Positions 37-61,451 of a stretch of DNA of 62,910 nucleotides are shown piece by piece (within the stretch, counting starts at the first letter, position 1; the number at the start of each line of letters is the position of its first letter). Source of the DNA: Thermoplasmatota archaeon. Its GTDB lineage: Archaea; Thermoplasmatota; E2; JACPAO01; JAHFTW01. Where the stretch lies: positions 1 through 62,910 of the forward strand of contig JBFIDG010000001.1 of the NCBI GenBank assembly GCA_041581335.1. The letters run 5' to 3'. A program made the translations under genes and the position numbers. A model generated the notes under the pieces. That model made no database searches. It was given only the letters and a program-made list of their open reading frames with translations, and was not told the origin of the DNA.

Positions 37-1314
37 TCAGACCAGCGGCGTGATCACCAGGTCCGCGCCGGCGTGGTACACGTGCCCCTGCCAGTAGCGG
101 CTGTCCCAGTGGCTGCCGTCGGCGGGTTCGATGTCCAGCACGTCCGGGTTGCCGGGGTCGCTGAAGTCCACGAGGATCGTGCCGCCTTGGTACCAGCCCA
201 TCACGAACGCTTCCTGGCCGGCGACCAGGTCACCGAAGTGGCTGCCGCAGTTGCCCTCGGCGGGGCTTGGCGGGACGCCGTCGCCGTTCCAGCCGCTGTC
301 GTTCTGGATGTAGGCCAGTTGCACGGGGTTGCGTTCGTCACTGATGTCGTAGATCCACGCCGCAGCGGTGGGGATCTGGTCTTCGCTGCCGACCAACGGA
401 AGGCCTGCGTCGAAGCAGTTGTTGGCACCGACGGGGACGCCGGGCAGGAAGGGGCCCACGTATTCGTCGTTGATGATGAGGATGTCTCCGCCATCGTTGA
501 CGAAGGCCTGGTGGTGGTACTTGATGCGGGGGTCGTCGATGGCCGCGAGCCACACCGGTTCGAGGGGGTCGGTGAGGTCCCAGATGAACGATTCACCGCC
601 GGCGCCGTAGTAGCGCCCGCCGCCACCGGCACAGTAGCCGCGTTGCAGGTCCGCGCGCACGGTGATGTCATGACAGCCGTCGGATTCGACGATGGTGTTG
701 CCGACCATGGCCGGGATGACGAAGCTGTGCGTGACGGGGGCTGCGGGGTTGGTGATGTCGAGGATGTCGATCTTGCCGCTGCCTTGGCCGACGGCCCCTT
801 GGGCACCCGGGACGCCGCTGGCGCCGCTGCTGTAGATGTAGGGGGTGCCCTGCAACGCGGCAAGGTTGTGGACGCCGGCCGAAGGCATGTCGGTGGTGCC
901 GACGAGCTGGGGGTCGCGGGGGTCGGTGACGTCGATGAGGTGCAGGCCGCGGCCGCTGCCGGCGAGGGCTGCGTAGGTGCGGTTCTGCCATTCGAGGACA
1001 TCCACGTCACGGGCACCGATGCCGGTGATGTTGCCCAGCAGGACGATGTTCTGCGGGTCGGCGACGTCGGCCAGCACGAGGTCTTGGCCGTTGGTCCAGT
1101 ACAGGATGTCGTTGTGGATCCAGATGCCCTGGCCGCCGCCAGCCATCTCGAAGCCGAAGGTCTCGCCGAAGCCGGTGAGCGTGCCGTTGAAGGGCGTGTT
1201 GCCCACGGGGCCGGTCGGTGCCGGGTCTTGCCCTGCCGCGGGAGGCGTCTGTTCGTCGGTGCATCCAGCAAGCACGGTCAGGGACAACAGCCCGATGACC
1301 ATCATGGCACGCAT
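37..1314 (-). CDS. Secreted lipoprotein with LVIVD-type beta-propeller repeats
   Basis: 425-aa ORF. N-terminal signal peptide ends in a lipobox-like LTVLAGC. Recurring strands LVLADVADP, LHLIDVTDP, IDILDITNP, ILVDFSDP resemble LVIVD-repeat surface proteins. Confidence 0.7.
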   Translation of the reverse strand: MRAMMVIGLLSLTVLAGCTDEQTPPAAGQDPAPTGPVGNTPFNGTLTGFGETFGFEMAGGGQGIWIHNDILYWTNGQDLVLADVADPQNIVLLGNITGIGARDVDVLEWQNRTYAALAGSGRGLHLIDVTDPRDPQLVGTTDMPSAGVHNLAALQGTPYIYSSGASGVPGAQGAVGQGSGKIDILDITNPAAPVTHSFVIPAMVGNTIVESDGCHDITVRADLQRGYCAGGGGRYYGAGGESFIWDLTDPLEPVWLAAIDDPRIKYHHQAFVNDGGDILIINDEYVGPFLPGVPVGANNCFDAGLPLVGSEDQIPTAAAWIYDISDERNPVQLAYIQNDSGWNGDGVPPSPAEGNCGSHFGDLVAGQEAFVMGWYQGGTILVDFSDPGNPDVLDIEPADGSHWDSRYWQGHVYHAGADLVITPLV

Positions 1315-1458
1315 GGCCGCCAGTCCGGGACACGCGTCTTAGGCCTTGGGGTGGACGTGCCTGGCCCCCTTGGCACGCCCGTAGGCCTAGCGCGTCCGCC
1401 CCGCCACCCTCAACCATGTCCCTATGCGGCTTTTGGTCTCGGGCCCCTTTTTTTCATC

Positions 1459-3048
1459 ATGCCGAGACTGGACGCCCTGCACGGGGCCCAGACCGAGAGC
1501 GAAGACCTGGCCGCCGCCGACCGGGTCTTGACCGTGGAGGCCTTGGCCGTGTTGGAGGAGGTCCACCGACGCTTCGAAGCACGGCGCCAGGAAGTGCTGG
1601 CGCTGCGGCCCGCCCGGCGTCGACGGTTGGCGGCCGGAGGTGGCTGGCCAGCAGAGACCCAGGCCATCCGGGACGGCGACTGGAAGGTCGCACCGATCCC
1701 GGCCGCCCTCCAGGACCGTCGCGTCGAGATCACAGGACCCGTCGACCGCAAGATGATGATCAACGCCCTCAACTCCGGCGCCAAGGTCTTCATGGCCGAC
1801 TTCGAAGACAGCCACAGCCCCGTCTGGGCCAACACCTTGGCGGGCCAGGTCAACATCATGGACGCCGTGCGCGGCACGCTTTCGCTGACCACGCCGGACA
1901 AGGAATACCGCGTCGGCCCCGACCCGGCGTTGCTACTGGTGCGCGTCCGCGGCTGGCACCTGGACGAGGCGGGCCTGGCCATCGATGGCAAGCCGATCTC
2001 CGCAAGCCTGTTCGATGCGACGCTCACCGTGTTCCACAACGCCAAGGAGCAGCTGGCCCGCGGGGTCGGGCCCTACCTGTACCTGCCGAAGCTGGAAGGC
2101 CGCGAGGAGGCCAGGCTGTGGGCGGACGTCCTAGGCCACATCGAGAAGGCCGTCGGGATCCCGGCCGGATCCATCAAGGTCACCGTGCTCATCGAGACCC
2201 TCCCCGCGGCGTTCGAGATGGAAGAGATCCTGCACGAGCTGCGGGACCACATCGTGGCCCTCAACGCCGGGCGCTGGGACTACATCTTCAGCGCCATCAA
2301 GGTCTTCGCCGAGGACCCGACGCGGGTCCTGCCCGACCGCTCCCAGGTCACGATGCACGCCCCCTTCATGCGAGCGTATGCCCAACGCCTTGTCGAGGTC
2401 TGTCACCGCCGTGGCGCCTTGGCGATGGGGGGCATGAGCGCGTTCATCCCGAACCGCCGCCGATCTGACGTCACGGAGGCCGCACTGGCCGCGGTGCGCG
2501 CCGATAAGGAGCGGGAAGTGGCAGACGGCTGCGACGGCACATGGGTGGCGCACCCGGACCTTGTCCCGGTCGCCATGGAGATCTTCGATGCCGCCTTGGG
2601 TGAGGCCCGCAATCAGGTCGGACGCCAGACCACGCCCCAGGTGACGCCTGAACAGTTCGTCGACCTGCACATCCCGGATGGCCACGTGACCCGGGCCGGT
2701 ATCGACACCAACATCGAGGTGACGCTGCGCTACCTGGCGGCATGGTTGTCCGGCGTCGGTGCCGTGGCGATCCACGACCTGATGGAGGACGCGGCGACCG
2801 CAGAGATCAGCCGTTGCCAATTGTGGCAATGGCGCTACCACGGGGTCACGACGACGGAGGGCGAACGCGTCGATGCATCGATGCTGAAAGCAGGCATCCG
2901 GCGACACGCACGCGCCCTGCGCGCCGAGTCTCCGCAGGCCCCGGTGACGGCCGCAGCCAGGCTCCTCGAACGGGCGGTCCTGGCCTGGCCGATCCCGGAC
3001 TTCCTCATCCTTTCCGCTTACAAGACGCTACAGGAGTCTACGACATGA
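1459..3048 (+). CDS. aceB: Malate synthase A, copy 1
   Basis: Malate synthase A blocks are present: [76 protein letters not shown] 1459 was chosen because the upstream part of ORF 22..3048 is antisense to the LVIVD gene. Confidence 0.9.
1686..1813 (+). repeat. 128-nt tract identical to 4979..5106 (inside aceB copy 1)
   Basis: A direct read of both copies shows identity from GGTCGCACCGATCCC to GAAGACAGCC. The flanking sequence is only about 75-85% identical. Confidence 0.9.
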
Positions 3049-4568
3049 ACATCGAAGCCAAGATCCAAGCCGAAGCCGACGCCCTGCAACGTGAATGGTC
3101 CCGGGACCTTCGGTGGCAAGGGGTGCGACGAGACTACTCCGCCGAGGAGGTAGTGCGGCTGCGCGGGAGCATCCAGTTCGATCACCCCTTGGCCCGCCAC
3201 GGCGCAGAACGCCTGTGGAATCTCCTCAACGGCGGCGGTGGAGACAACTACATCAACGCCCTGGGGGCGGTGTCCGGCAACCAGGCGATGCAGATGGTCC
3301 GTGCTGGATTGAAGGCGATCTACCTATCCGGCTGGCAGGTCGCGGCGGACGGCAATCTCTCGGAGACGATGTATCCAGACCAGAGCCTGTACCCTGTGAA
3401 TTCGGTGCCCGCCATGGTGCGGCGTATCAACAACTGCTTGCGCCGCGCGGACCAGATCGAGTGGGCTGAGGGGGACGTGAGCCGGGATTGGTTCGTCCCG
3501 ATTGTAGCCGACGCGGAGGCCGGTTTCGGCGGCCCGCTCAACGCCTTCGAACTGATGAAGGACATGATCGAGGCAGGGGCCGCCGCGGTGCATTTCGAGG
3601 ACCAGCTGGCCTCGGAGAAGAAGTGCGGCCACCTGGGGGGCAAGGTCCTGGTCCCCACGAGCCATGCCATCCGGCAACTCAAAGCGGCCCGCCTGGCGGC
3701 AGACGTCAAAGGTGTTCCGACGGTCCTTGTCGCCCGCACGGATGCCCGCGCGGCGACGCTGCTCACGAGCGATGTCGACCCCATCGACCACGCACACATC
3801 ACCGGCGAACGCACGCCGGAAGGCTACCTGCGGATCAAGGCGGGCCTGGACCATGCCATCGCACGGGCCCTGGCGTACGCGCCATACGCCGATGTGCTGT
3901 GGTGCGAGACAGGGACGCCTGATCTGGCCGAGGCGAAGCAGTTCGCCGCCGCGATCCACGCCAAGTTCCCCGGCAAGCTCCTGGCATACAATTGCAGTCC
4001 GAGCTTCAACTGGAAGCAACATCACAGCGACGCCAGCATCGCCGCGTTCCAGGACGAGCTGGGTAAGATGGGGTACCGTTTCCAGTTCATCACCCTGGCC
4101 GGGTTCCACGCGATCAACCACGCCATGTTCCAATTGGCCCAGGGCTACAAGCGCGAACAGATGACCGCGTACGTGCGCTTGCAGGAGGCGGAGTTCGCGG
4201 CCGAGAGCCAGGGCTATACGGCGACCAAGCACCAGCGGGAGGTCGGCACCGGCTACTTCGATGAGGTGTATCGGGCGATCAGTGGCGGCACGAGCAGCAC
4301 GCTGGCGATGGAGGGAAGCACGGAGGCCGAGCAGTTCGCCGCTCCCGCGCTGAAGACCAACGGCCATGTCGCGACAGAGGTATCGAACGGGGCCCGGCCT
4401 GCGCGACCAGGCGCCACGAACGGCAAGAAGGTGGGCAATGGCCATGCCAAGAACGGCCGCAACGGCCACGGGACGGACGGTCATCCTCGCGCCCCGGGCG
4501 AAGACGCGCAGAACGGGGTCCAGCCCGTCGGGTCCGCCGGCGCCGCACAGAAGCGCGACGGCCATTGA
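3045..4568 (+). CDS. aceA: Isocitrate lyase, copy 1, with an Asn/Gly/His-rich C-terminal tail
   Basis: ICL blocks [24 protein letters not shown], catalytic [10 protein letters not shown] and VARTDA are present. Its ATG overlaps the aceB stop (ATGA at 3045-3048). About 70 extra C-terminal residues are absent from copy 2. Confidence 0.9.
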
Positions 4569-4650
4569 CGCGGCCAGGACGGGCATATCCGTTTGTGCCA
4601 AGGAAGCGGCGCCAGGCCCGGCCCTGTCCAGGGGTCCGCCTCCTGTTGGC

Positions 4651-4713
4651 CACCCCTGCACTTCCGATGCAGCTCGAAAAGGTGAACATGTTCGTGTGCC
4701 ATTCGTAAATGTC
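4651..4713 (+). promoter_or_regulatory. Conserved intergenic module, copy A: ORB-like half-site plus GAACATGTTC palindrome element
   Basis: 4651 CACCCCTGCACTTCCGATGCAG; 4683 TGAACATGTTCGTGTGCCATTCGTAAATGTC. It lies 40-100 nt upstream of the aceB copy 2 start. Confidence 0.5.
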
Positions 4714-4715
4714 CG

Positions 4716-4731
4716 ATAGTTTCAAGATATG
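4716..4731 (+). promoter_or_regulatory. Possible TATA-like box for a leaderless aceB copy 2 transcript
   Basis: The A/T-rich string ATAGTTTCAAGATATG is centred about 25-30 nt before ATG 4752, in otherwise GC-rich DNA. Confidence 0.3.
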
Positions 4732-4751
4732 GTCTCCTGCTGTCGTCCTGA

Positions 4752-6347
4752 ATGGAGACCCTCGTGCCCCCCGGCCTCACGCTGGCCACCCCCATCTTGG
4801 ACGGCACCGACGTGCTGAGTCCCGAAGCCCTGGCCTTCGTCGCGGAGCTGTCACGCCGATTCGACGGACGCCGCCGTGGACTGCTCGACGCCAGGCAGGC
4901 ACGGCAGATCGCCTACGATGCCGGCGAGACGCCTGATTTCCTCGCGGACACCTCACACATCCGTGCCGACGACTGGACGGTCGCACCGATCCCGGCCGCC
5001 CTCCAGGACCGTCGCGTCGAGATCACAGGACCCGTCGACCGCAAGATGATGATCAACGCCCTCAACTCCGGCGCCAAGGTCTTCATGGCCGACTTCGAAG
5101 ACAGCCTCAGCCCGACCTGGGCCAACCTCGTGGCCGGCCACCAGAACGTCTACGACGCCACGCGTGGCCGCCTCACCTACGCCCATCCGACCAAGGGCAC
5201 CTACCGGGTCGAGGACGACCCCGCCCAGATGATCTTACGGCCACGCGGCTGGCACCTCGACGAAGCCCACGTGCACGTCGATGGCCACCCAGTCAGTGCG
5301 AGTCTCTTCGACTTCGGCATCTCGTTCTTCCACAACGCCGCCGCCTTGCACGACCAAGGACGCGGCCCCTTCTACTACCTCCCCAAGCTCGAACACCACG
5401 ACGAAGCAAGACTCTGGGACGACGTCTTCCGCCACGCCCAGGACGCCATCGGCCTACCCCCGGGGACCATCAAGGCCACCGTCCTCATCGAGACCCTCCC
5501 CGCCGCCTTCCAGATGGACGAGATCCTGTTCGCGCTCAAAGACCACATCGTCGGCCTGAACGCCGGCCGCTGGGACTACATCTTCAGTTGCATCAAGACC
5601 CTGCGCCGCCACCCCGACAAGACATTGCCCGACCGCGGCCAGGTCACCATGGGCGTGCCCCACATGCGCGCCTACACGCAGCTGCTGATCCAGACGTGCC
5701 ACCGTCGCGGCGCCTTCGCCATGGGTGGCATGAGCGCCTTCATCCCGGACCGGGCCGACCCCGTGCGCACCGAGAACGCCCTGGCCCAAGTCCGCGCGGA
5801 CAAGCAGCGGGAAGCCGCCGACGGCTGTGACGGCACATGGGTCGCCCACCCAGGCCTCGTGCAGGTGGCGATGGAGATCTTCGACGCCGCATTGGCCGGC
5901 GCACCCAACCAACTGCATCGCCCACCCACCACCATCAAGGTGACGGCGGCAGACCTCCTCGACTTCGCGGTCCCCGACGGCCGCACCACCCACGCAGGCG
6001 TCGCCCAGAACGTCGACGTCGGCCTGCGCTACCTCGTCGCGTGGCTCTCCGGCGACGGCGCCGCAGCCATCCACGGACTGATGGAGGATGCCGCCACCGC
6101 AGAGATCAGCCGCAGCCAGCTGTGGCAGTGGACCCAGCACAAGGTGCAGCTCGAAGACGGGCGGCCCGTCACCAAAGCCCTCGTCGCCGACCTGATCACC
6201 GCCACCGCTGCACGGCTGTCCCACGAGGCCCCCGAAGCGCCCGTCGAGACGGCAGCCCAGTTGCTCGCCGACGTCGCATTGGGCGACGCCTTCCCCCCGT
6301 TCCTGACCATCCCCGCCTACGCCACCCTCCAGGAGACCCCCGCATGA
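4752..6347 (+). CDS. aceB: Malate synthase A, copy 2
   Basis: 531-aa paralogue of 1459..3048 with the same conserved blocks. It shares a 128-nt identical tract with copy 1. Confidence 0.9.
4979..5106 (+). repeat. 128-nt tract identical to 1686..1813 (inside aceB copy 2)
   Basis: Same observation. The antisense ORFs 1387..1815 and 4953..5186 in the track share an identical 42-aa string, which confirms it. Confidence 0.9.
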
Positions 6348-7672
6348 ACATCGAAGCCGATATCCAAGCCCAAGCCGACCGACTGCAGCAGGAATGGGAG
6401 ACCCACCCCCGGTGGGCGCACGTGCAACGCGACCACTCCGCCGAAGAGGTCGTGCGCCTGCGCGGCAGTCTGCAGTTCGACTACCCGGTGGCCCGCCACG
6501 GGGCCCAGCGACTCTGGTCGCTCCTGAACGAGGACGAATACATCAACGCCCTCGGCGCCCTCACGGGGAACCAGGCGATGCAGATGGTCCGCGCCGGATT
6601 GAAGGCGATCTACCTATCCGGCTGGCAGGTCGCCGCCGATGCCAACCTGGCCGAACAGATGTACCCCGACCAGAGCCTGTACCCCGTCAACTCCGTGCCG
6701 GCCGTCATCCGACGCATCAACAACACGTTGCGTCGTGCGGACCAGATCGAATGGTCCGAGGGCAACGTGACCCGCGATTGGTTCGTCCCGATCGTCGCCG
6801 ACGCCGAAGCCGGTTTCGGCGGCCCCCTCAACGCGTTCGAGCTGATGAAGAGCATGATCGAAGCGGGCGCGGCCGGCGTGCACTGGGAAGACCAACTCGC
6901 GTCGGAGAAGAAATGTGGTCACCTGGGCGGCAAGGTACTGGTGCCGACCAGCCACCATATCCGCACACTCAAGGCGGCCCGCCTGGCGGCCGATGTCATG
7001 GGTGTCCCGTCATTGATCGTCGCCCGCACCGATGCCCGCGCCGCGACGCTGCTGACCAGCGACGTCGACCCCATCGACCACGCCCACATCACGGGGGAGC
7101 GCACGGCTGAAGGCTACCTGCGCGTGACGCCGGGACTCGAACACGCCATCGCCCGCGGACTCGCTTACGCACCCTATGCCGACCTGATCTGGTGTGAGAC
7201 CAGCACGCCCGACATGGAGGAGGCCCGCGCCTTCGCGGCAGCCATCCACGCCAAGTTCCCGGGCAAGATGCTGGCCTACAACTGCAGCCCCAGCTTCAAC
7301 TGGCGCCAGCACCTGGACGACGACCAGATCGCCCGCTTCCAGACGGAGCTCGGCAAGATGGGCTACAAGTTCCAGTTCATCACGCTCGCCGGGTTCCATG
7401 CCCTGAACGAGTCCATGTTCACGTTGGCCAAGGCGTACGCGAAGGAAGGCATGACCGCCTACGTGCGCTTGCAGGAATCGGAGTTCGCGGCGGAGGCCGA
7501 TGGCTACACCGCCACCAAACACCAACGCGAGGTCGGCACGGGGTACTTCGACGAGGTCTACCGGGCCATCAGTGGTGGCACCAGCAGCACGCTTGCGATG
7601 GAAGGCAGCACCGAGGCCGAACAGTTCAGTACCCCGATCGCGAAGGTCCCGGACCCGAAGAAGACCGGTTGA
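6344..7672 (+). CDS. aceA: Isocitrate lyase, copy 2
   Basis: 442-aa paralogue of 3045..4568 with [22 protein letters not shown] and VARTDA. It has the same ATGA start/stop overlap with the upstream aceB. Confidence 0.9.
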
Positions 7673-7675
7673 GCG

Positions 7676-8452
7676 CTACGCGCCCCGGACCACGTCACGG
7701 ACGCCTGCCTGACACGTCGGGTAGAGCACCATCTCCTGGATGTTGACGTGGGCCGGGCGCGCACAGGACCATGTGATGGCGTCGGCCACGTCCTCAGGGC
7801 GCAGCACGTCGGCGTCGGCGTAGACCTTGGCCGCACGGGCGGTGTCGCCGCGGAAACGCACCTGGCTGAACTCGGTCTCCACGAGTCCCGGCTCGATGTT
7901 GGTGACGCGCACCCCGGTGCCCTGCAGATCGTAGCGGAGGCCTTCGGTGATGGCCGACACGGCGGCCTTGGTGGCGCAATAGACGCCGCCGCCGGGGTAG
8001 GTCCAACGGCCGGCGACGCTGCCAAGGTTCACGATGTGACCTCGGCGCTCGATGAGGGCCGGCAAGGCGACGCGGGTGACCGCCAAGAGGCCCGTCACAT
8101 TGGTGTCGATCATCTCCTGCCAGTCCTCCACGCGAGCGTCCTGCATGGGGTCCGTGCCGCGGGCGAGCCCGGCGTTGTTGACCAGGACATCGACATCGAA
8201 GAGCCGCTTGTGCTGCTTGGCCATGGCCCTGATCTGGGCGACGTCACGGACATCCATGACGACGGGATGTACTGTGGTGCCATGGCTGTCGGCGAGGCGG
8301 TGGGCCAGGTCGTCAAGGCGTGCCTCGCGACGGCCGACGATCGTGACGTGGCTGGCTCCTTGAGCGCAGAACGCTTCGGCCGTGGCGGCGCCGATGCCAG
8401 CGGTGGCTCCCGTGATCAGTACGCGGCGACCCTTGAACGGCAGGACGTCCAT
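7676..8452 (-). CDS. Short-chain dehydrogenase/reductase (NADP-dependent, YdfG-like)
   Basis: Contains the TGATAGIGAA dinucleotide-binding motif, NNAG, and catalytic Y-x3-K (YCATK). Length is 258 aa. Confidence 0.8.
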   Translation of the reverse strand: MDVLPFKGRRVLITGATAGIGAATAEAFCAQGASHVTIVGRREARLDDLAHRLADSHGTTVHPVVMDVRDVAQIRAMAKQHKRLFDVDVLVNNAGLARGTDPMQDARVEDWQEMIDTNVTGLLAVTRVALPALIERRGHIVNLGSVAGRWTYPGGGVYCATKAAVSAITEGLRYDLQGTGVRVTNIEPGLVETEFSQVRFRGDTARAAKVYADADVLRPEDVADAITWSCARPAHVNIQEMVLYPTCQAGVRDVVRGA

Positions 8453-8477
8453 GCGCGGCCAGCACAGCCTGCGTTCA

Positions 8478-10184
8478 TCACGGTGCCGGCTGGCGCGCGT
8501 CGCCCCCCACGCTGGCGACGGGAGGCGGCGTGGCCGGCAGCTCCACCCAGAAGCAGGCCCCTTTGCCGGCGCCTTCGCTCATCGCGCCGATGGTGCCGCC
8601 CAAGGCCTGCGTCAAGGTCTTGCAGATGTACAACCCCAGCCCCGTGCCGGGGATGCGTGGGTCGTCGTGGACCTGTCCGAACGGCAGGAACAGATGTTTG
8701 AGTCCATCCGGCCCTAACCCGACGCCGGTGTCACGGACTTCGATCCGCACCTTGGCCTCGGCTGGCGCCACGGCCACGGTCACAGCGCCTCCACGCGGCG
8801 TGAACTTGAGAGCGTTGCTGACCAGGTTGGTCATGACCTGGGCAAGCCTGTCAGGATCCGCCCAGGCGACGGCAGGCCCCTCCATGTCGAGCGCCAACGA
8901 GACCTCGGCGGCCTGCGCGGACGCGGCGAAGGTCTCGACGAGGTCCGTGAGCTCTGGCACAAGGTCGACCTCCCGGGCCGAGACGCGGACGTCCCCCCGC
9001 TGTAGTCGAGCCACGTCCAACATGTCCTGCACCAAGCCCCCTAGGCGGTCAAGGTTGCGCTCAAGGAGCCCGAGGGCCCGAGGACGCCCCTGCCATTCGT
9101 CTCGCAGCACGGCGAACTGCAACTTGATCGGGGTCAGGGGGGTGTTCAGCTCGTGGGCGGCAGAATTGATGAAGCGCGTGCGGAACTCGTCGAGCTCCTT
9201 CAGGCGGTCGATCTCCATCTGCTGCTCGTGGGCCAGTGTGCGGGCCCGCTCGGCTTCGAACTGGACCGTGATGTCACGGGCGGCCACGACGCGGGCCGGC
9301 ATGCCCCGATACTCGATGGGGCGTGCCTGCACCATGACGCGCCGCTTCTCATCCCCCTGCCCGAGCCATAGTTCGTAGCTCTCATCCCGGGGGTTCGCCA
9401 GGCGGTCTTCCACAAGCTCGGCCGACGACGGGTCAACGAGGGTCCGCAGGTCGCTGCCCAGGAGCTCTTCGCGGCCCTTGCCTAAGAGCGCCGCGAAGGC
9501 CTCGTTGAATTCGAGGATGACGCCGTCCCGGTGGATGCAGATGCCTTCGAACGCGGCCTCCGTGAGGGCCCTGATGCGTTCCGCCTCTGCCACCATCATC
9601 TCCTGGTGCCGGACCTCCTGGGCGAGGTCCATGCGTTCCCGCACGGCCGCCTGCCATCGGTAGCCAAGGAGCATGCCAAGGACCCCGGTGACGGAGATGT
9701 AGGTGGCGCGTGCGGCGATGGTGGGCAGGTTCTCGGGCAGCACGTCGCCGGCCGCGACCAGCATGCTCGTGTCGGCGGCCATGTAGATCCCGGCCGCCAG
9801 AGCCACCATGCTGGGGCCGAAGCGGAAGACCACCGCGACGAGAGACAGTGCCCACAACCCGTAGAACGGGGAGAGGATGCCTCCAGTGGCGTAGAGCCAG
9901 AGCGCGATGAGCACGGAATCCGTCGCCAGCGTGTAGGCGCTGGTGCGCAGGATGTGGAACCGCTCATAGGGCCGGACCGTGACCACGAAGACCGCGTAGA
10001 ACGACGCGGCGGCGCAGATGATGAGCGCCAGCCGATGCTGTGGGTGGTCGTGCGGCATGACGCCCAGGTACAGCGCGACGTTGAACGCGATGATGGCGAA
10101 GCGGACCCAGGCGATGTCACGCTCGGCGGTGTACGCCTGCACGGACGTCGCGTCCCCAAGTCGTTCGTCATCCTCGGCCACCAT
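8478..10184 (-). CDS. Membrane sensor histidine kinase (multi-TM input, PAS-like, HisKA, HATPase_c)
   Basis: Has about 6 N-terminal TM segments, the H-box FINSAAHELNTPLT, and ATPase boxes NLVSNALKF, DTGVGL, GTGLGLYI. Start is ATG 10184 (MVAEDD) or the upstream alternative at 10259. No response regulator is adjacent. Confidence 0.8.
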   Translation of the reverse strand: MVAEDDERLGDATSVQAYTAERDIAWVRFAIIAFNVALYLGVMPHDHPQHRLALIICAAASFYAVFVVTVRPYERFHILRTSAYTLATDSVLIALWLYATGGILSPFYGLWALSLVAVVFRFGPSMVALAAGIYMAADTSMLVAAGDVLPENLPTIAARATYISVTGVLGMLLGYRWQAAVRERMDLAQEVRHQEMMVAEAERIRALTEAAFEGICIHRDGVILEFNEAFAALLGKGREELLGSDLRTLVDPSSAELVEDRLANPRDESYELWLGQGDEKRRVMVQARPIEYRGMPARVVAARDITVQFEAERARTLAHEQQMEIDRLKELDEFRTRFINSAAHELNTPLTPIKLQFAVLRDEWQGRPRALGLLERNLDRLGGLVQDMLDVARLQRGDVRVSAREVDLVPELTDLVETFAASAQAAEVSLALDMEGPAVAWADPDRLAQVMTNLVSNALKFTPRGGAVTVAVAPAEAKVRIEVRDTGVGLGPDGLKHLFLPFGQVHDDPRIPGTGLGLYICKTLTQALGGTIGAMSEGAGKGACFWVELPATPPPVASVGGDARQPAP

Positions 10185-10348
10185 GACCAGACCCGTAGAG
10201 AGCCTCCGGTTCCTTAAGCAGATGCCTGCGGCCTGGGGCCGGCGACCCTGCGCATTCAACCCTCTGCGTCCGACGACCCATTTTCCGCCGGCCCGTCAAC
10301 CGCCGCGACCCAAACCCCCATGTGGCTGCCCGTTCTAGGAGGACCTGG

Positions 10349-11296
10349 ATGGGTGTCAATCTCCGCGACCTCTTCGAGCAATACCCGGTCCCGGACGGCT
10401 GGTACGAGGGCAAGCGCATCGCCATCGACGGCCACAACACGGCGTTCCGCTACCTGACCACCATCCGCGGCAAGGATGGCGACGTGCTGCGGAGCAAGGA
10501 CACGGGCCGGGCGACGAGCCATATTCTGGGGTTCTTGGGGCTCATCCGACAGATGCGCGTGGCCGGCGCGGAGCCCATCGTCATCTGGGACGGCCCGGTG
10601 CACCCCCGCAAGTTGGCGACGGTGCAGGAACGCATCCGCAAGCGCGAGGAGAACCTGGCACGTGCCGAGGCCGCGAAGGAAGAGGGCGACATGCGCGAGT
10701 TCGCCCGCCTCATGCGGGGCAGCGTCTACTTCGAGCCCCAGATGATCGAGGATTGTACGCGCCTGCTGGAATCATTGGGCGTGGCGGTGGTCACGGCCGA
10801 TCATGACGGCGAACGCTACGCCAGCGCCTTGTGCCTGGAAGGCCACGCGGATGCCGTCGCCACGGAGGACTTCGATGCCCTCGTCGCTGGCGCGCCCCGC
10901 GTCCTGCGAAAGGCCGGCGGCCAGAATACGTTCCTCCACCGCCTGACGGACCTGGAGACCCATGGTCTCGAGACCTGGCAGCTGCGCCAGGTGGCCATTG
11001 TCTGCGGCACCGACTGGCACCCGGGCATCAAGGGCTTCGGCGCCAAGACGGCGGTCAAGGCACTGCAGGCCCATGACGACCTGCGCACGCTCTGGGACAG
11101 TGGGGCGACCCGCGCCCACAAGTTGGTGGCGCAGGGCGGCATGTCGTTGGAGACCTTCGACGACCTGGACGCTTTCATCGGCGACCTGCCCAAGCCGGAC
11201 GCTCCCAAGCGGACCAAGCCCTGCCCGGACATGGCCACCGCTACCGCCGACGAGATCGGCATCAACCACGACCGCGTCCTGGCCTGCTTCACGTAG
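10349..11296 (+). CDS. fen: Flap endonuclease 1 (FEN-1)
   Basis: N-terminus MGVNLRDL..IAIDGHN (XPG-N), acidic XPG-I block (DHDGERYA..TEDFDAL), and H3TH GTDWHPGIKGFGAKTA. The C-terminus DRVLACFT is only weakly PIP-box-like. Confidence 0.85.
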   Translation: MGVNLRDLFEQYPVPDGWYEGKRIAIDGHNTAFRYLTTIRGKDGDVLRSKDTGRATSHILGFLGLIRQMRVAGAEPIVIWDGPVHPRKLATVQERIRKREENLARAEAAKEEGDMREFARLMRGSVYFEPQMIEDCTRLLESLGVAVVTADHDGERYASALCLEGHADAVATEDFDALVAGAPRVLRKAGGQNTFLHRLTDLETHGLETWQLRQVAIVCGTDWHPGIKGFGAKTAVKALQAHDDLRTLWDSGATRAHKLVAQGGMSLETFDDLDAFIGDLPKPDAPKRTKPCPDMATATADEIGINHDRVLACFT

Positions 11297-11402
11297 TGCC
11301 GCGACGGCACGTCGGACGCCGCCCCGGCCGTTGGGGCATGGCCCGCGACCGTCGCCCCACCACTGCCGATGCGGACCCGGGCGTCCCGGCGCTCGCTCCA
11401 GG

Positions 11403-11697
11403 TGCATGCGCAACAAAGGGGTAGACCGACCTCTTACGACACCCCTTCATTTCCTGTGGAATACCGGACCTGTCCGGGGGGATCGATCATTCGCCGTCCA
11501 ATGGAAATGCTGCCAAGGCGGGTCGCAGAAGGTCTCCGGGAGGTGGATCATCCCAAACTGCTTCCCTAGTTGCATCCCATCCAGTCGTAAGGCCGACCGA
11601 ATCGGTGGCCAAAGCCACCAGACGAAGCATGCACGGACCCCTTTACAGCGCAATTGGTAACAAACCCTCTTTTCGACCCCTTTACTTCCGATGGAAC
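11403..11697. promoter_or_regulatory. Cluster I of ORB-like repeats (dyad TTCC-N3-GGAA plus G-string)
   Basis: Plus-strand sequences: 11403 TGCATGCGCAACAAAGGGGTA; 11441 ACCCCTTCATTTCCTGTGGAAT; 11497 TCCAATGGAAAT; 11636 GACCCCTTTAC; 11675 GACCCCTTTACTTCCGATGGAAC. Both orientations are present. Confidence 0.5.
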
Positions 11698-58088: not shown

Positions 58089-58173
58089 CACCCCTTCGTT
58101 GCGATCCCTGGGCGGGCCTGGACAGCCTCAACAGGAGGGGCATGAACATGTTCGTATGCCATTTGAACTGTCA
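58089..58173 (+). promoter_or_regulatory. Conserved intergenic module, copy B
   Basis: 58089 CACCCCTTCGTTGCGATCC; 58143 TGAACATGTTCGTATGCCATTTGAACTGTC. The second element matches copy A at about 27 of 31 positions with one indel. Confidence 0.5.
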
Positions 58174-58485: not shown

Positions 58486-60171
58486 ATGTGTGGCATCGCA
58501 GGCATCCTTGGTCGTGACGACCCCGCACTCGTCCGGCAGATGGCCGACCTCCTCGTCCACCGCGGACCCGACGGCGAAGGGGTCTGGAGCGACGACAACG
58601 TCACCCTCGGCCACCGCCGCTTGAGCATCGTCGACCTGGAAGGCGGCGCCCAACCCATGGAGAGCCACGACGGGCGCTACTGCATCGTGTACAACGGCGA
58701 AGTCTACAACCACGCCGCCGTCCGCGCCAAACTGGCCGCACAGGGCGCCACGTTCCGCACAGACCACTCCGACACCGAGACCATCCTCGAAGGCTACCGT
58801 CGCTGGGGCCCCGACGTCGTGACCCACCTCGAAGGCATGTTCGCCTTCGCCCTCTGGGACACACAAGAACGCAGCCTCTTCATCGCCCGGGATCCGTTCG
58901 GCATCAAGCCGTTCTACTACGCCTGCGCCGACGGCGAGATGGTCTTCGCCAGCGAACAGAAAGCCCTGTTCGCCCACCCTGCTATCGACGCGGTCCCGAA
59001 CCTCGACCGGTTGCGCGAACGGGCCACCTTGGAATTCCTCACCGGTCAAGCCACCCTGTTTGCCGGAATCCACCAGCTTCCGCCCGGCACATGGGCGCTG
59101 TTGCGACCAGACGAACCGGACTTCTGCCGCGTCCTGTGGCAACCTTACTACCACGTCCCCGTCGAACGCTACGCGACGGTCGAAGAAGCGGCCCACGTCA
59201 TCAAGGACCGCTTCGTCGCCTCCGTGCAAGAGCAGCTCATGGCGGACGTGCCTCTTGGCGTCATCCTGAGCGGCGGGTTCGACTCCGCCGTCGTCGCCAC
59301 CGCGCACCAGAAGTTCCTCTCAGACACCCCCATCCACACCTACACGATCGCCGAGTCCGAAGAGGTGGCCGACTTCCAGGCCGCCCGCCGGCTCGCCGAC
59401 CATCTGGGCACCGACCACCACGAGGCCTTCTTCGAGTTCGAAGACGTGCTGCGGGACCTACCCCGCTACACGTACCACAACGAGAACATCAACTACACCG
59501 AGTTCTTCTTCCTGCCACTGTTCGAACGCATGGCCAAGGACGTCAAGGTCGGCCTATGCGGCCAAGGCAGCGACGAACTATGGGGTGGCTATGATCGTTA
59601 CAAGGACCCGCTGGCTTTGGCCAAGGAACGCATCACGCGCATCCGCCGTGCAGCCCCCGCTCACGAAGACGAACTCGCCACATTGGTCAATCTGACCCAC
59701 ATGAGCGGTCAGAGCCTGGCCGAATGGGACCAGCAAGGCCAACTCAACAACTTCCAACTCCGCCTCGTCGACCGCAACTCCATGGCCAGCAGCCTCGAGG
59801 TGCGCGTGCCGTTCCTGAGCCGCCCCCTGCACGCCGCCAGCCGCGCCGTGCCATGGGGCTGGAAGATGGGTGGCCCCACTGGCGGCGACCACGCCGGCAT
59901 GGAGAAATGGATCCTGCGCAAGGCCCTGGAAGAGCTCGGCATGCCCGATGACCTGACCTGGCGCAAGAAGGTCCCCGCTGGCCGCGCCACGGGCCCCCGC
60001 GTCATGGACCAGTTCGAATCACACTGCGCCAAGCTGGTCGACCCCAAGGCCATGGCAGCGCACCCCCTCGGCGGCGCCTTCCAACGGCCCGCCGAATTCT
60101 TGGTCTACCGCCTTTGGGACGAGATCTTTGTCCAAGGCCACCGGACCCCTACATTGGAGGAACTCTGTTGA
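58486..60171 (+). CDS. Asparagine synthase (glutamine-hydrolysing) family amidotransferase
   Basis: N-terminal nucleophile MCGIAG (Ntn GATase II), PP-loop VILSGGFDSAVVA, and an AsnB-type C-terminal domain. Confidence 0.85.
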   Translation: MCGIAGILGRDDPALVRQMADLLVHRGPDGEGVWSDDNVTLGHRRLSIVDLEGGAQPMESHDGRYCIVYNGEVYNHAAVRAKLAAQGATFRTDHSDTETILEGYRRWGPDVVTHLEGMFAFALWDTQERSLFIARDPFGIKPFYYACADGEMVFASEQKALFAHPAIDAVPNLDRLRERATLEFLTGQATLFAGIHQLPPGTWALLRPDEPDFCRVLWQPYYHVPVERYATVEEAAHVIKDRFVASVQEQLMADVPLGVILSGGFDSAVVATAHQKFLSDTPIHTYTIAESEEVADFQAARRLADHLGTDHHEAFFEFEDVLRDLPRYTYHNENINYTEFFFLPLFERMAKDVKVGLCGQGSDELWGGYDRYKDPLALAKERITRIRRAAPAHEDELATLVNLTHMSGQSLAEWDQQGQLNNFQLRLVDRNSMASSLEVRVPFLSRPLHAASRAVPWGWKMGGPTGGDHAGMEKWILRKALEELGMPDDLTWRKKVPAGRATGPRVMDQFESHCAKLVDPKAMAAHPLGGAFQRPAEFLVYRLWDEIFVQGHRTPTLEELC

Positions 60172-61451
60172 ACCAAACCCAAGGCGCCCTTGAGGGCCTC
60201 GACCGCATCCTCGTCGACGCCACCGACCGCATCGAAGACCTGCTCGCCTATCACCGCAACCAGGTCCTCTGTCCGGTCTACACGAGCGTCGACATCCGAC
60301 GCAACCGCCACAAGGCCGCCGTCGTCGACGCCAACGCTTTCCCCGCCGGTTTCAACAACCTCAGCAAGCGCAGCTACACGCAGGCCACGGAGGCGGTGGG
60401 GAGCTACATGGGCAAGGTCTACCCAGGCGCGGAGGAACTGTTGCTGTTGGCGGAGAACCACACCCGCAACAAGTGGTACTTCCAGAACCTCCTGACACTA
60501 CGGGATCTGTTCAGCAGCGCCGGCTACCACGTCACCGTCGGCACCATGGCGGAGGAACTCTTCCCGCAGTCCACCGTCGAGACCGCGCTCGGGGACAAGC
60601 TCGAAGTGCACGGCGTCATCCGCGAGGGCGACGCGCTGATCGCCGATGGTACTGTGCACGACGTGGTCATCCTCAACAACGACCTGTCTGGGGGCACCCC
60701 CGATATCCTCGACGGGCTCAGTCAACCCATCACGCCGCCGCCGGCGATGGGCTGGCACCGCCGCCGCAAGTCGGAGCACTTCCGCATCGTCTGCGAACTG
60801 AGTCGCCAACTGGGCGACTACGTGGGCTTCGACCCGTGGCTGATCAGCGCCGAGTTCGACCGCGCCGACGGCGTGGATTTCAAGGACCGCGACACCCTGG
60901 ATGCCGTCGCCACCAAGATCGATGCGGTGCTCGACAAGGTCCGCGCGAAGTACGATGAATACGGTGTCGACCGCGAGCCCCACGTCTTCGTGAAGGCCGA
61001 CGCCGGCACCTATGGTATGGGGGTCATGGACACCACCAGTGGCGATGATTTCCTACGCCTCAACAGCAAGGGCCGCGAGAAGATGGCCAAAGGAAAAGAG
61101 GGGGTCAAGACGACCTCACTCATCATCCAGGAAGGCGTGCACACAGGCATCCGCAGCAGTGGCGCCGTCGCCGAGCCCGTCATGTACATGGTCTGCGGCA
61201 GCGTCGTGGGCGGCTTCAACCGCATCCACAAGGACAAGTCCGACACCCAGAGCCTCAACTCGCCTGGCAGCACCTTCGAGCCCATGGCGTTCAGCACCCA
61301 GATGCAGAGCGCGGCAGGGCCCGACGAGGTCGTCATGGACGACGTCAGCCGCCACGTCTACCAGGTGCTCGGCGAGATCGCCAGCATCGCCACCGGCTAC
61401 GAACACAAGCTCGCGGCGACCCCTGGCGCGGCGTTACCCACGTATCCGTAG
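60168..61451 (+). CDS. GshA-type (Acidithiobacillus ferrooxidans family) ATP-grasp glutamate--cysteine-ligase-like enzyme
   Basis: YTSVDIRRNRHKAAVVDANAFPAGFNNL and VFVKADAGTYGMGV match my recollection of the rare GshA family (Pfam GshA / TIGR gshA_ferroox). TTG 60168 overlaps the asnB-like stop. An upstream ATG at 60114 is an alternative. Confidence 0.55.
   Translation: MNQTQGALEGLDRILVDATDRIEDLLAYHRNQVLCPVYTSVDIRRNRHKAAVVDANAFPAGFNNLSKRSYTQATEAVGSYMGKVYPGAEELLLLAENHTRNKWYFQNLLTLRDLFSSAGYHVTVGTMAEELFPQSTVETALGDKLEVHGVIREGDALIADGTVHDVVILNNDLSGGTPDILDGLSQPITPPPAMGWHRRRKSEHFRIVCELSRQLGDYVGFDPWLISAEFDRADGVDFKDRDTLDAVATKIDAVLDKVRAKYDEYGVDREPHVFVKADAGTYGMGVMDTTSGDDFLRLNSKGREKMAKGKEGVKTTSLIIQEGVHTGIRSSGAVAEPVMYMVCGSVVGGFNRIHKDKSDTQSLNSPGSTFEPMAFSTQMQSAAGPDEVVMDDVSRHVYQVLGEIASIATGYEHKLAATPGAALPTYP

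Follow-up and report, generated by a model that had tools for sequence, protein, structure and literature searches.

Documented cases of recurrent conversion between old archaeal paralogues are few. A survey of recurrent concerted evolution among prokaryotic paralogues lists 26 genes, 19 bacterial and 7 archaeal, and the archaeal ones all belong to methanogens (PMC6053082). One pair in that survey is mtrA-1/mtrA-2, in which gene conversion has been long-lasting in both the Methanococcales and the Methanomicrobiales (PMC4632066; listed in PMC6053082). Here we describe two head-to-tail pairs of the glyoxylate shunt genes aceB (malate synthase A) and aceA (isocitrate lyase) on a stretch of 62,910 nucleotides (nt) from an uncultured Thermoplasmatota archaeon (positions 1 to 62,910 of contig JBFIDG010000001.1, assembly GCA_041581335.1). 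This whole stretch is hereafter called the window. Its two malate synthase genes share a short tract of exact identity, for which gene conversion between the paralogues is strongly supported. The locus is a new example of an established process, distinguished by a very short patch, a saturated background and a patch boundary common to two lineages, and it adds a case from central carbon metabolism outside the methanogens. The case is unusually clean, as its very short patch stands on a saturated background and a direct comparison of two lineages is available. Archibald and Roger are said to have described in 2002 patchy conversion in conserved segments of the archaeal chaperonin (thermosome) paralogues in several lineages; these proteins form hetero-oligomers and belong to a different gene family.

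The mtrA genes are the closest parallel. In both systems, ancient archaeal tandem duplicates lie in or next to an operon, the paralogues within a species exceed the orthologues across species in likeness, and conversion has recurred in separate lineages. The present case differs in that the host is not a methanogen, the genes serve central carbon metabolism and the duplicated unit is an entire two-gene operon. Homogenisation is also confined to a patch of about 110-128 nt on an otherwise saturated background, and only two lineages are documented. The diagnostic pattern and the presumed mechanism are the same as those of tufA/tufB-type concerted evolution; however, the list of 26 genes includes neither aceB nor aceA, and the conversion here is partial and not gene-wide (PMC6053082). 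As an operon, the locus resembles aceBAK of Escherichia coli, in that aceB is followed by aceA, the malate synthase A is of the classical type, the isocitrate lyase has about 430 residues and the products show high identity to solved bacterial enzymes. It differs in lacking aceK in the operon, where a convergent short-chain dehydrogenase gene comes next, and in being present twice in an archaeal host. No adjacent IclR-type regulator was seen at the locus. The Thermoplasmatota member 'E-plasma' likewise has an isocitrate lyase and a malate synthase of bacterial type, which share more than 60% identity with bacterial proteins, although that organism is an acidophile with a single copy, whereas the window is GC-rich, comes from marine metagenomes and carries two pairs (PMC10354927).

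Four open reading frames without internal stops lie head to tail on the plus strand and form two complete aceB-aceA pairs, at 1459-4568 (copy 1, aceB1-aceA1) and 4752-7672 (copy 2, aceB2-aceA2). An ATGA stop/start overlap is present at both aceB/aceA junctions. This layout had been described in an initial annotation made from the sequence, and its coordinates and gene families were confirmed. The exact 128-nt identity between aceB1 and aceB2 that it reported (Table 1) was likewise found, and it is not extendable by even one base at either end. The tract was analysed by permutation of polymorphic sites (a GENECONV-type test with 5000 shuffles). It spans 35 polymorphic sites, a length reached in 0 of the 5000 permutations, in which the largest shuffled run was 15. 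At the background codon identity, 42 consecutive identical codons have a probability of about 6e-11 per position.

Among 5.8 billion proteins searched, those of the copy-1 type came from only three further contigs and a copy-2 orthologue from one, and a scan of metagenome contigs with AceB1 gave a best identity of 58%, with nothing closer. The contigs reached through the closest AceB1 relatives are designated L081, which is syntenic with the window and has both pairs, L082, which is syntenic and has one copy-1-type pair, and L083, a short contig that stops just past aceA1. Five related loci with a single aceBA pair are designated L002, L163, L164, L165 and L166. The two aceB genes of L081 have an exact tract of their own, 110 nt in length (8087-8196 = 11399-11508), which covers 25 polymorphic sites (0 of 5000 permutations). 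It is equivalent to window positions 1704-1813, and thus occupies the same site and has its 3' end at the same base as the window tract. Compared with each other, the window tract and the L081 tract agree at only about 85% of positions, and nearly all of the differences are synonymous. Within the tract, the paralogues are 100% identical in the window and 96% identical in L081 over the same columns (exact over the 110 nt). Outside the tract, the orthologues are 71-78% identical at the nucleotide level, versus 63-66% for the paralogues; over the whole gene, window aceB1 is 71% identical to L081 aceB1 and 66% identical to window aceB2. In the cross-genome control, the longest runs between window aceB1 and L081 aceB2 and between window aceB2 and L081 aceB1 were 8 and 7 polymorphic sites, respectively. 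Since the tracts are only about 85% alike across the genomes, conversion occurred separately in each lineage, and the identity of the paralogues within the tract, together with the difference of the orthologues, requires at least one conversion per lineage after the window and L081 had split. The local homogenisation proposed by the initial annotation is therefore borne out by the permutation test and by the independent L081 tract at the same site. The conversion is recurrent, having taken place in at least two lineages independently, and the tract is not a relic of the duplication.

The aceA genes of L081 also carry tracts, of 74, 65 and 50 nt, with 16, 16 and 13 polymorphic sites, respectively (P=0.0004 to 0.005). 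A 38-nt identical run in aceA of the window had been offered as further evidence of conversion. It sits at the site of the 74-nt tract of L081 (P=0.0004), but it is not significant alone.

The divergence between the copies is greater than the 75-85% nucleotide identity that was given at the outset. The aceB1 and aceB2 genes are 66% identical at the nucleotide and 59% at the amino acid level, and the aceA1 and aceA2 genes are 77% and 81% identical, respectively. The codon identity at identical residues is 0.62 between the copies, while codon usage alone predicts 0.55-0.57 (the GC content at third codon positions, GC3, being 0.83-0.88). With the tract removed, the value for aceB is about 0.56, next to an expectation of 0.57. 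The NG86 estimate of synonymous divergence (dS) is about 0.8-1.1 for every pair, paralogous or orthologous. Thus, the synonymous sites outside the tract are saturated, and a dS profile is unable to date anything. The plot of dS along the alignment that had been suggested is uninformative in this respect, although the segment of zero divergence is sharply visible. In its place, we used the codon identity in comparison with the codon-usage expectation, the permutation of polymorphic sites and the incongruence across genomes. The old divergence of the copies that was first proposed is supported, the codon identity outside the tract being equal to the codon-usage expectation.

The tract encodes a 32-residue block of the catalytic core, which is near-invariant in all 17 malate synthases compared, including the bacterial ones. 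Unconverted paralogues are 80-88% identical at the nucleotide level in this block, versus 45-62% in its flanks. The nucleotide identity of about 85% in the block, compared with 50-60% on either side of it, arises because the protein is invariant and the codons are biased to 87% GC3. Homologous pairing is feasible only in this island of conservation. At the 3' edge, the tract ends in both genomes at the second base of one codon, which reads His in all four proteins of the copy-1 type and Leu in those of copy 2. Val follows two codons later in copy 1, where nearly every other sequence, including copy 2, has Thr. The shared 3' edge may reflect a limit set by mismatches on heteroduplex extension or selection against overwriting of copy-specific residues, either of which would explain it. 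On the 5' side, the copy-1-type proteins of L082 and L083 have LL, and window aceB1 and L081 aceB1 have LQ, as in copy 2 and most relatives. These residues weakly suggest copy 2 as the donor and copy 1 as the recipient. From these observations, we propose that the two operons, as direct repeats on one chromosome, would occasionally have a short patch copied across by non-reciprocal homologous recombination. The copying would succeed where the DNA is still similar enough, namely at the catalytic-core block of malate synthase, and the patch would end where the divergence climbs sharply and the copy-specific residues begin (His and Val in copy 1, Leu and Thr in copy 2). The account as a whole, in which two functional and anciently diverged tandem operons, a copy 2 of ancestral-like type and a faster copy 1, undergo recurrent short-patch conversion, is very probably correct.

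To place the two pairs, trees were constructed from 66 AceA sequences, from 71 AceB sequences and for the 17 loci at which both genes are known, with the conversion tracts masked. Both copies fell within a single clade (support 100/100) that comprises 12 loci, and every labelled or marker-bearing member of this clade is archaeal. L002 is labelled as Thermoplasmatota, and L163 and L166 carry the gene for FEN1, a flap endonuclease. A neighbouring gene in L165 matches Thermoplasmatota genomes at 77, 58 and 55%, and the next matches are bacterial at 39-42%. Further labelled proteins, from the wider clade of isocitrate lyases, come from Thermoplasmatota as well. Within the clade, the copy-1 sequences of the window, L081, L082 and L083 form a group with 100/100 support, on a stem of 0.73 in AceB and 0.11 in AceA. 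The copy-2 sequences of the window and L081 form a group with L165 (97/99), a non-syntenic locus that has one pair and a GC content of 56%. The aceA2 gene is 95% identical to its L081 orthologue and 88-91% identical to the single-copy relatives. An exclusive clade of copy 1 and copy 2 was rejected by the approximately unbiased (AU) test for AceB (p=0.002), AceA (p=0.003) and the concatenated proteins (p=0.009). This rejection means that the split predates several related lineages or that one pair came from a related archaeon, and it does not agree with the simple tandem duplication that had been assumed. The two pairs diverged before the four known copy-1 genomes radiated, and they are either old paralogues or xenologues that stem from within one archaeal clade.

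The syntenic outgroup L163 gave different placements for its two genes. Its AceB groups with copy 2 (100/99), and placement with copy 1 was rejected (p=0.004), while its AceA groups with copy 1, and placement with copy 2 was rejected (p=0.008). The single aceBA operon of L163 (6397-9323), like that of L164, is thus a mosaic of both types, and the history of these genes includes recombination or whole-gene replacement between the two operon types. The copy-1 tree has the form ((window, L082), (L081, L083)). From this tree and the presence of copy 2 in both the window and L081, it is most likely that L082 lost copy 2. The L082 pair, at 7693-10721, is of the copy-1 type only, and a short-chain dehydrogenase gene lies directly next to it. 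We also considered this pair as a chimera produced by a deletion between copy 1 and copy 2, and rejected this, as the sliding identities are of the copy-1 type throughout. With the mosaic in L163 and the loss in L082, the aceB and aceA trees are reticulate, and neither the copy number nor a single-gene tree can be read as a simple duplication or a bacterial transfer.

A bacterial origin by horizontal transfer had also been suggested for the operons. A recent bacterial import of either copy is not supported by the trees, in which both copies lie in the archaeal clade described above, a placement that the initial annotation had itself named as evidence against such a transfer. This clade is itself embedded among bacterial sequences, at identities of about 58-61% for malate synthase and about 70-76% for isocitrate lyase. 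In a scan of genome contigs with AceA2, the matches listed were mostly from bacteria, at 67-73%, and L002 was the sole member of the archaeal clade among them. An older inter-domain transfer at the base of the clade, possibly more than one, is plausible from these sequence relationships. The glyoxylate shunt genes of 'E-plasma' (Thermoplasmatales) have been described as bacterial-like and probably acquired by lateral transfer (PMC10354927). A second group of aceB-aceA genes labelled as Thermoplasmatota, P0076/P0231 (on one contig of 5970 nt) and P0021/P0237, stands apart from the main archaeal clade. The P0076/P0231 group branches near sequences from Symbiobacterium and Limnochorda, and there may have been more than one acquisition of shunt genes in the phylum.

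The two pairs differ in their rates of protein evolution. Between the window and L081, the nonsynonymous divergence (dN) is 0.233 for aceB1 and 0.142 for aceB2, and 0.131 for aceA1 (tail included) and 0.032 for aceA2; at the protein level, the rate of copy 1 is 1.6 to 4 times that of copy 2. The ratio of dN to dS (omega) between orthologues is 0.04 to 0.25 in all four genes, which are under purifying selection. At otherwise invariant sites, AceB1 has 21 changes in comparison with 13 other sequences, and AceB2 has 1 in comparison with 15 others; AceA1 has 8 and AceA2 has 0. With 21 such changes, AceB1 may have either kept or altered its specificity. Since L082 keeps copy 1 alone, copy 1 must be functional. 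The initial annotation had remarked that the copies differ at the C-terminus of isocitrate lyase. AceA1 does have a tail of about 75 residues (encoded at about 4341-4565), which is basic, of low complexity and rich in Asn, Gly and His. This tail is present in all four copy-1 orthologues, with variable length and sequence (the copy-1 aceA genes of the relatives lie at 9428-10975 in L081, 9276-10721 in L082 and 3111-4622 in L083, and the total proteins have 481-515 residues), and it is absent from copy 2 and the single-copy relatives. In the proposed history, copy 1 would have gained this disordered tail and lost the perfect palindrome found upstream of the other copy, as described below. The rapid evolution of copy 1 and the tail on its isocitrate lyase make it a candidate for functional divergence.

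Other explanations of the tract were weighed with these data. An artefact of assembly or polishing, in which a collapsed or chimeric repeat or the mis-mapping of reads between the paralogues created the tract or the tandem layout, has to be considered for a contig assembled from a short-read metagenome at a depth of about 10x, as judged from Logan contigs. The locus was compared with the independently built Logan k=31 contigs of four marine-metagenome runs, in which it has a depth of about 5-15x. Several of these records break precisely 30 nt inward of a tract edge (ends at 1715 and 5008, starts at 1784 and 5077), one starts at 1686, and all four distinct flanks of the tract are present among the records, as a true exact repeat of 128 nt would give. 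De Bruijn assemblers break at repeats rather than creating them, each copy matches its own orthologues in both its 5' and its 3' part, and the independently assembled L081 has the same tandem layout with a different identical tract of its own. An artefact is thus scarcely credible. The summed Logan depth was 54-130 at window positions 7159-7592, in aceA2, compared with about 10 elsewhere; a conserved segment of isocitrate lyase likely recruits contigs of other organisms there at the 97% threshold, and this is no signal of copy number. Selection at the nucleotide level, exerted through an embedded RNA, an antisense or small RNA target or an internal binding site, could also keep the tract identical without any recombination, and it would fit the finding of the same site, with the same 3' boundary, identical between both copies of two genomes. 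However, a constrained sequence would not be expected to differ by about 15% between the genomes at nearly always synonymous positions, and the single-copy relatives vary in the tract, too. An Rfam scan of 1200-7900 gave no match, and the fold of the tract was no better than that of shuffled sequence (z=0.17), and an RNA element in the tract was rejected on these grounds. We consider this form of selection very improbable. The head-to-tail layout and the identical architecture of the operons might suggest a recent, lineage-specific tandem duplication, in which the tract is a leftover of the original identity and the rest diverged quickly. This is the least credible of the alternatives, as the synonymous sites outside the tract are at the codon-usage expectation, the copy-1 and copy-2 clades each hold orthologues from at least two genomes, the AU tests reject the clade that it predicts and the tracts differ between the genomes.

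The origin of the second pair is a closer question. One pair, more likely copy 2, may have been transferred from a Thermoplasmatota member like L165 and integrated beside the resident homologue, perhaps facilitated by homology, with conversion following as proposed above. The grouping of copy 2 with L165, which is non-syntenic and is itself from Thermoplasmatota by its neighbouring gene, the grouping of the L163 isocitrate lyase with copy 1, and the rejection of the exclusive clade by the AU tests all favour such a transfer. Conversely, the AceB of L163 groups with copy 2, so that the resident lineage was not cleanly copy 1; related elements lie upstream of both copies; the L082 case shows that loss of a pair is possible, which makes an old duplication followed by losses also workable; and the long aceB1 branch may distort the placement of aceB1. 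The transfer is a serious possibility, to which we give somewhat less than an even chance, while an old duplication in place, with repeated losses, is about evenly balanced against everything else. Another possibility concerns the meaning of the patch. Copy 1 might be a neofunctionalised pair under its own regulation, with an altered specificity for the acyl-CoA or the 2-oxoacid or with a different assembly or localisation conferred by the tail, and its patches might be bounded by selection. We regard this as rather unlikely. If it were true, recombination would be tolerated only over the shared core and purged when it overwrites copy-specific residues, which would explain the common exact 3' boundary at the His/Leu codon in two lineages, and the locus would be a natural map of the residues that define the functional difference between both enzymes.

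Returning to recurrent short-patch conversion between two old operons, several points count against it or narrow it. In aceA of the window, no significant conversion tract was found (P=0.21 for the 38-nt run). The permutation test models the heterogeneity of conservation only partly, and the recurrence comprises two lineages, the searched collections holding only two genomes with both pairs. The linkage of the flanks across the 128-nt repeat depends on the original assembly and on the agreement with orthologues, and the donor direction on essentially one diagnostic residue pair. In the trees, the groups compared by the AU tests were named after the trees had been seen, the long branch of aceB1 could distort its placement, L163 is a mosaic, and a duplication in situ and an acquisition from a related archaeon are both plausible.

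The coordinates of the features are collected in Table 1. The genes were assigned to families by the NCBIfam equivalog cut-offs of TIGR01344 (594.5 bits) and NF011645 (562 bits); the Pfam families concerned are PF01274, with MS_N and MS_C, for malate synthase and PF00463 for isocitrate lyase. AceB1 and AceB2 each span positions 1-510 of the 511 in the TIGR01344 profile, and the malate synthases 3CUX and 3CUZ, whose structures are solved, can be aligned with AceB1 from end to end. The motifs RVRGxHL, LIETLP and GRWDY and a further motif of 11 residues are kept in AceB1, as seen in the 3CUZ alignment, and direct reading shows the same motifs in AceB2. They surround the positions of the catalytic Arg, the two acidic Mg ligands and the catalytic Asp (Arg166, Glu250, Asp278 and Asp447 in the E. 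coli enzyme). In AceA1 and AceA2, the catalytic loop KKCGH is intact, including the active-site Cys. 7CMX and other isocitrate lyases of solved structure match AceA1 over residues 12-432 and have no counterpart to its last 75 residues or so. The four enzymes are ordinary members of their families.

Table 1. Positions of the genes, identical tracts and upstream elements in the window.
Feature	Coordinates	Strand	Details
aceB1, malate synthase A, fast-evolving copy	1459..3048	+	529 aa; TIGR01344 660.6 bits (cut-off 594.5)
aceA1, isocitrate lyase with C-terminal tail	3045..4568	+	507 aa; NF011645 760.1 bits (cut-off 562)
aceB2, malate synthase A, conservative copy	4752..6347	+	531 aa; TIGR01344 735.3 bits (cut-off 594.5)
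aceA2, isocitrate lyase, canonical length	6344..7672	+	442 aa; NF011645 780.2 bits (cut-off 562)
Conversion tract, copy-1 side	1686..1813	+	exact 128-nt identity with 4979-5106; encodes 42 residues
Conversion tract, copy-2 side	4979..5106	+	exact 128-nt identity with 1686-1813
38-nt identical run in aceA	3306..3343 = 6596-6633	+	8 polymorphic sites; P=0.21
Copy-1 upstream element CAACCATGTCCCTATGCGGCTTTTGG	1411..1436	+	near-identical in window, L081 and L082
Copy-2 upstream control region (putative)	4684..4729	+	GAACATGTTC at 4684-4693; related site GTAAATGTCC at 4705-4714; A/T-rich promoter-like GATAGTTTCAAGATA at 4715-4729
FEN1-type flap endonuclease	10322-11296		XPG_N and XPG_I domains; marks the host as archaeal

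The surroundings of the operons are conserved. Downstream of aceA2, the convergent short-chain dehydrogenase gene is followed by the genes for a PAS histidine kinase and FEN1, and the same order is found in the relatives. The gene order in L081 is an LVIVD-repeat gene, aceB1, aceA1, aceB2, aceA2 and the genes for short-chain dehydrogenase, histidine kinase and FEN1, with the same flanks as in the window. In the window, an LVIVD-repeat-like protein of 425 residues (a weak match) is encoded at 37-1314 on the minus strand, divergent from aceB1. In L081, L082 and L163, a cluster for an ATP-binding cassette (ABC) transporter of the branched-chain amino acid type precedes the LVIVD gene, and synteny is kept out to L163.

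The regions upstream of the two pairs are distinct. A perfect palindrome, GAACATGTTC, is located upstream of aceB in all five single-copy relatives fetched (L002, 1764-1773; L163, 6372-6381; L164, 4077-4086; L165, 6380-6389; L166, 1331-1340). To our knowledge, it is unrelated to the known bacterial operators. In L002, L165, L166 and copy 2 of the window and L081, alignment by eye places a second, related site about 10-15 nt downstream, followed by an A/T-rich promoter-like stretch. L163 has the palindrome alone, 15 nt before the start codon, and L081 has GAACATGTAC upstream of its copy 2. In the window, the palindrome is present at 4684, upstream of copy 2 and not of copy 1, and again at 58144. 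The element upstream of copy 1 (Table 1), which differs in L083 at its 5' end (AATGCTGTCCC...), looks like a degenerate proximal GAACATGTCC-type site with a promoter core. It resembles only the proximal site, for example CGAACATGTCCCATAAATTC of L165, and its homology to the operator is putative. A scan for sigma-70 promoters and terminators gave nothing useful, the model being bacterial and the host archaeal. Copy 2 appears to keep the ancestral upstream operator, itself putative, together with the ancestral sequence type, and copy 1 is without the perfect palindrome. Different regulation of the two pairs, as expected by the initial annotation, is therefore well grounded as a prediction from these elements. 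The locus was found in no RNA run. The palindrome would provide a handle for finding the regulator of the archaeal glyoxylate shunt. The second occurrence in the window belongs to the same module, at 58144-58172, and precedes an asparagine-synthase-like gene (58486-60171) by about 340 nt; the distribution of the GAACATGTTC module suggests one regulator with a small regulon. Next to the asparagine-synthase-like gene, and with the same module upstream, lies a gene for a GshA-type glutamate-cysteine ligase (60114-61451).

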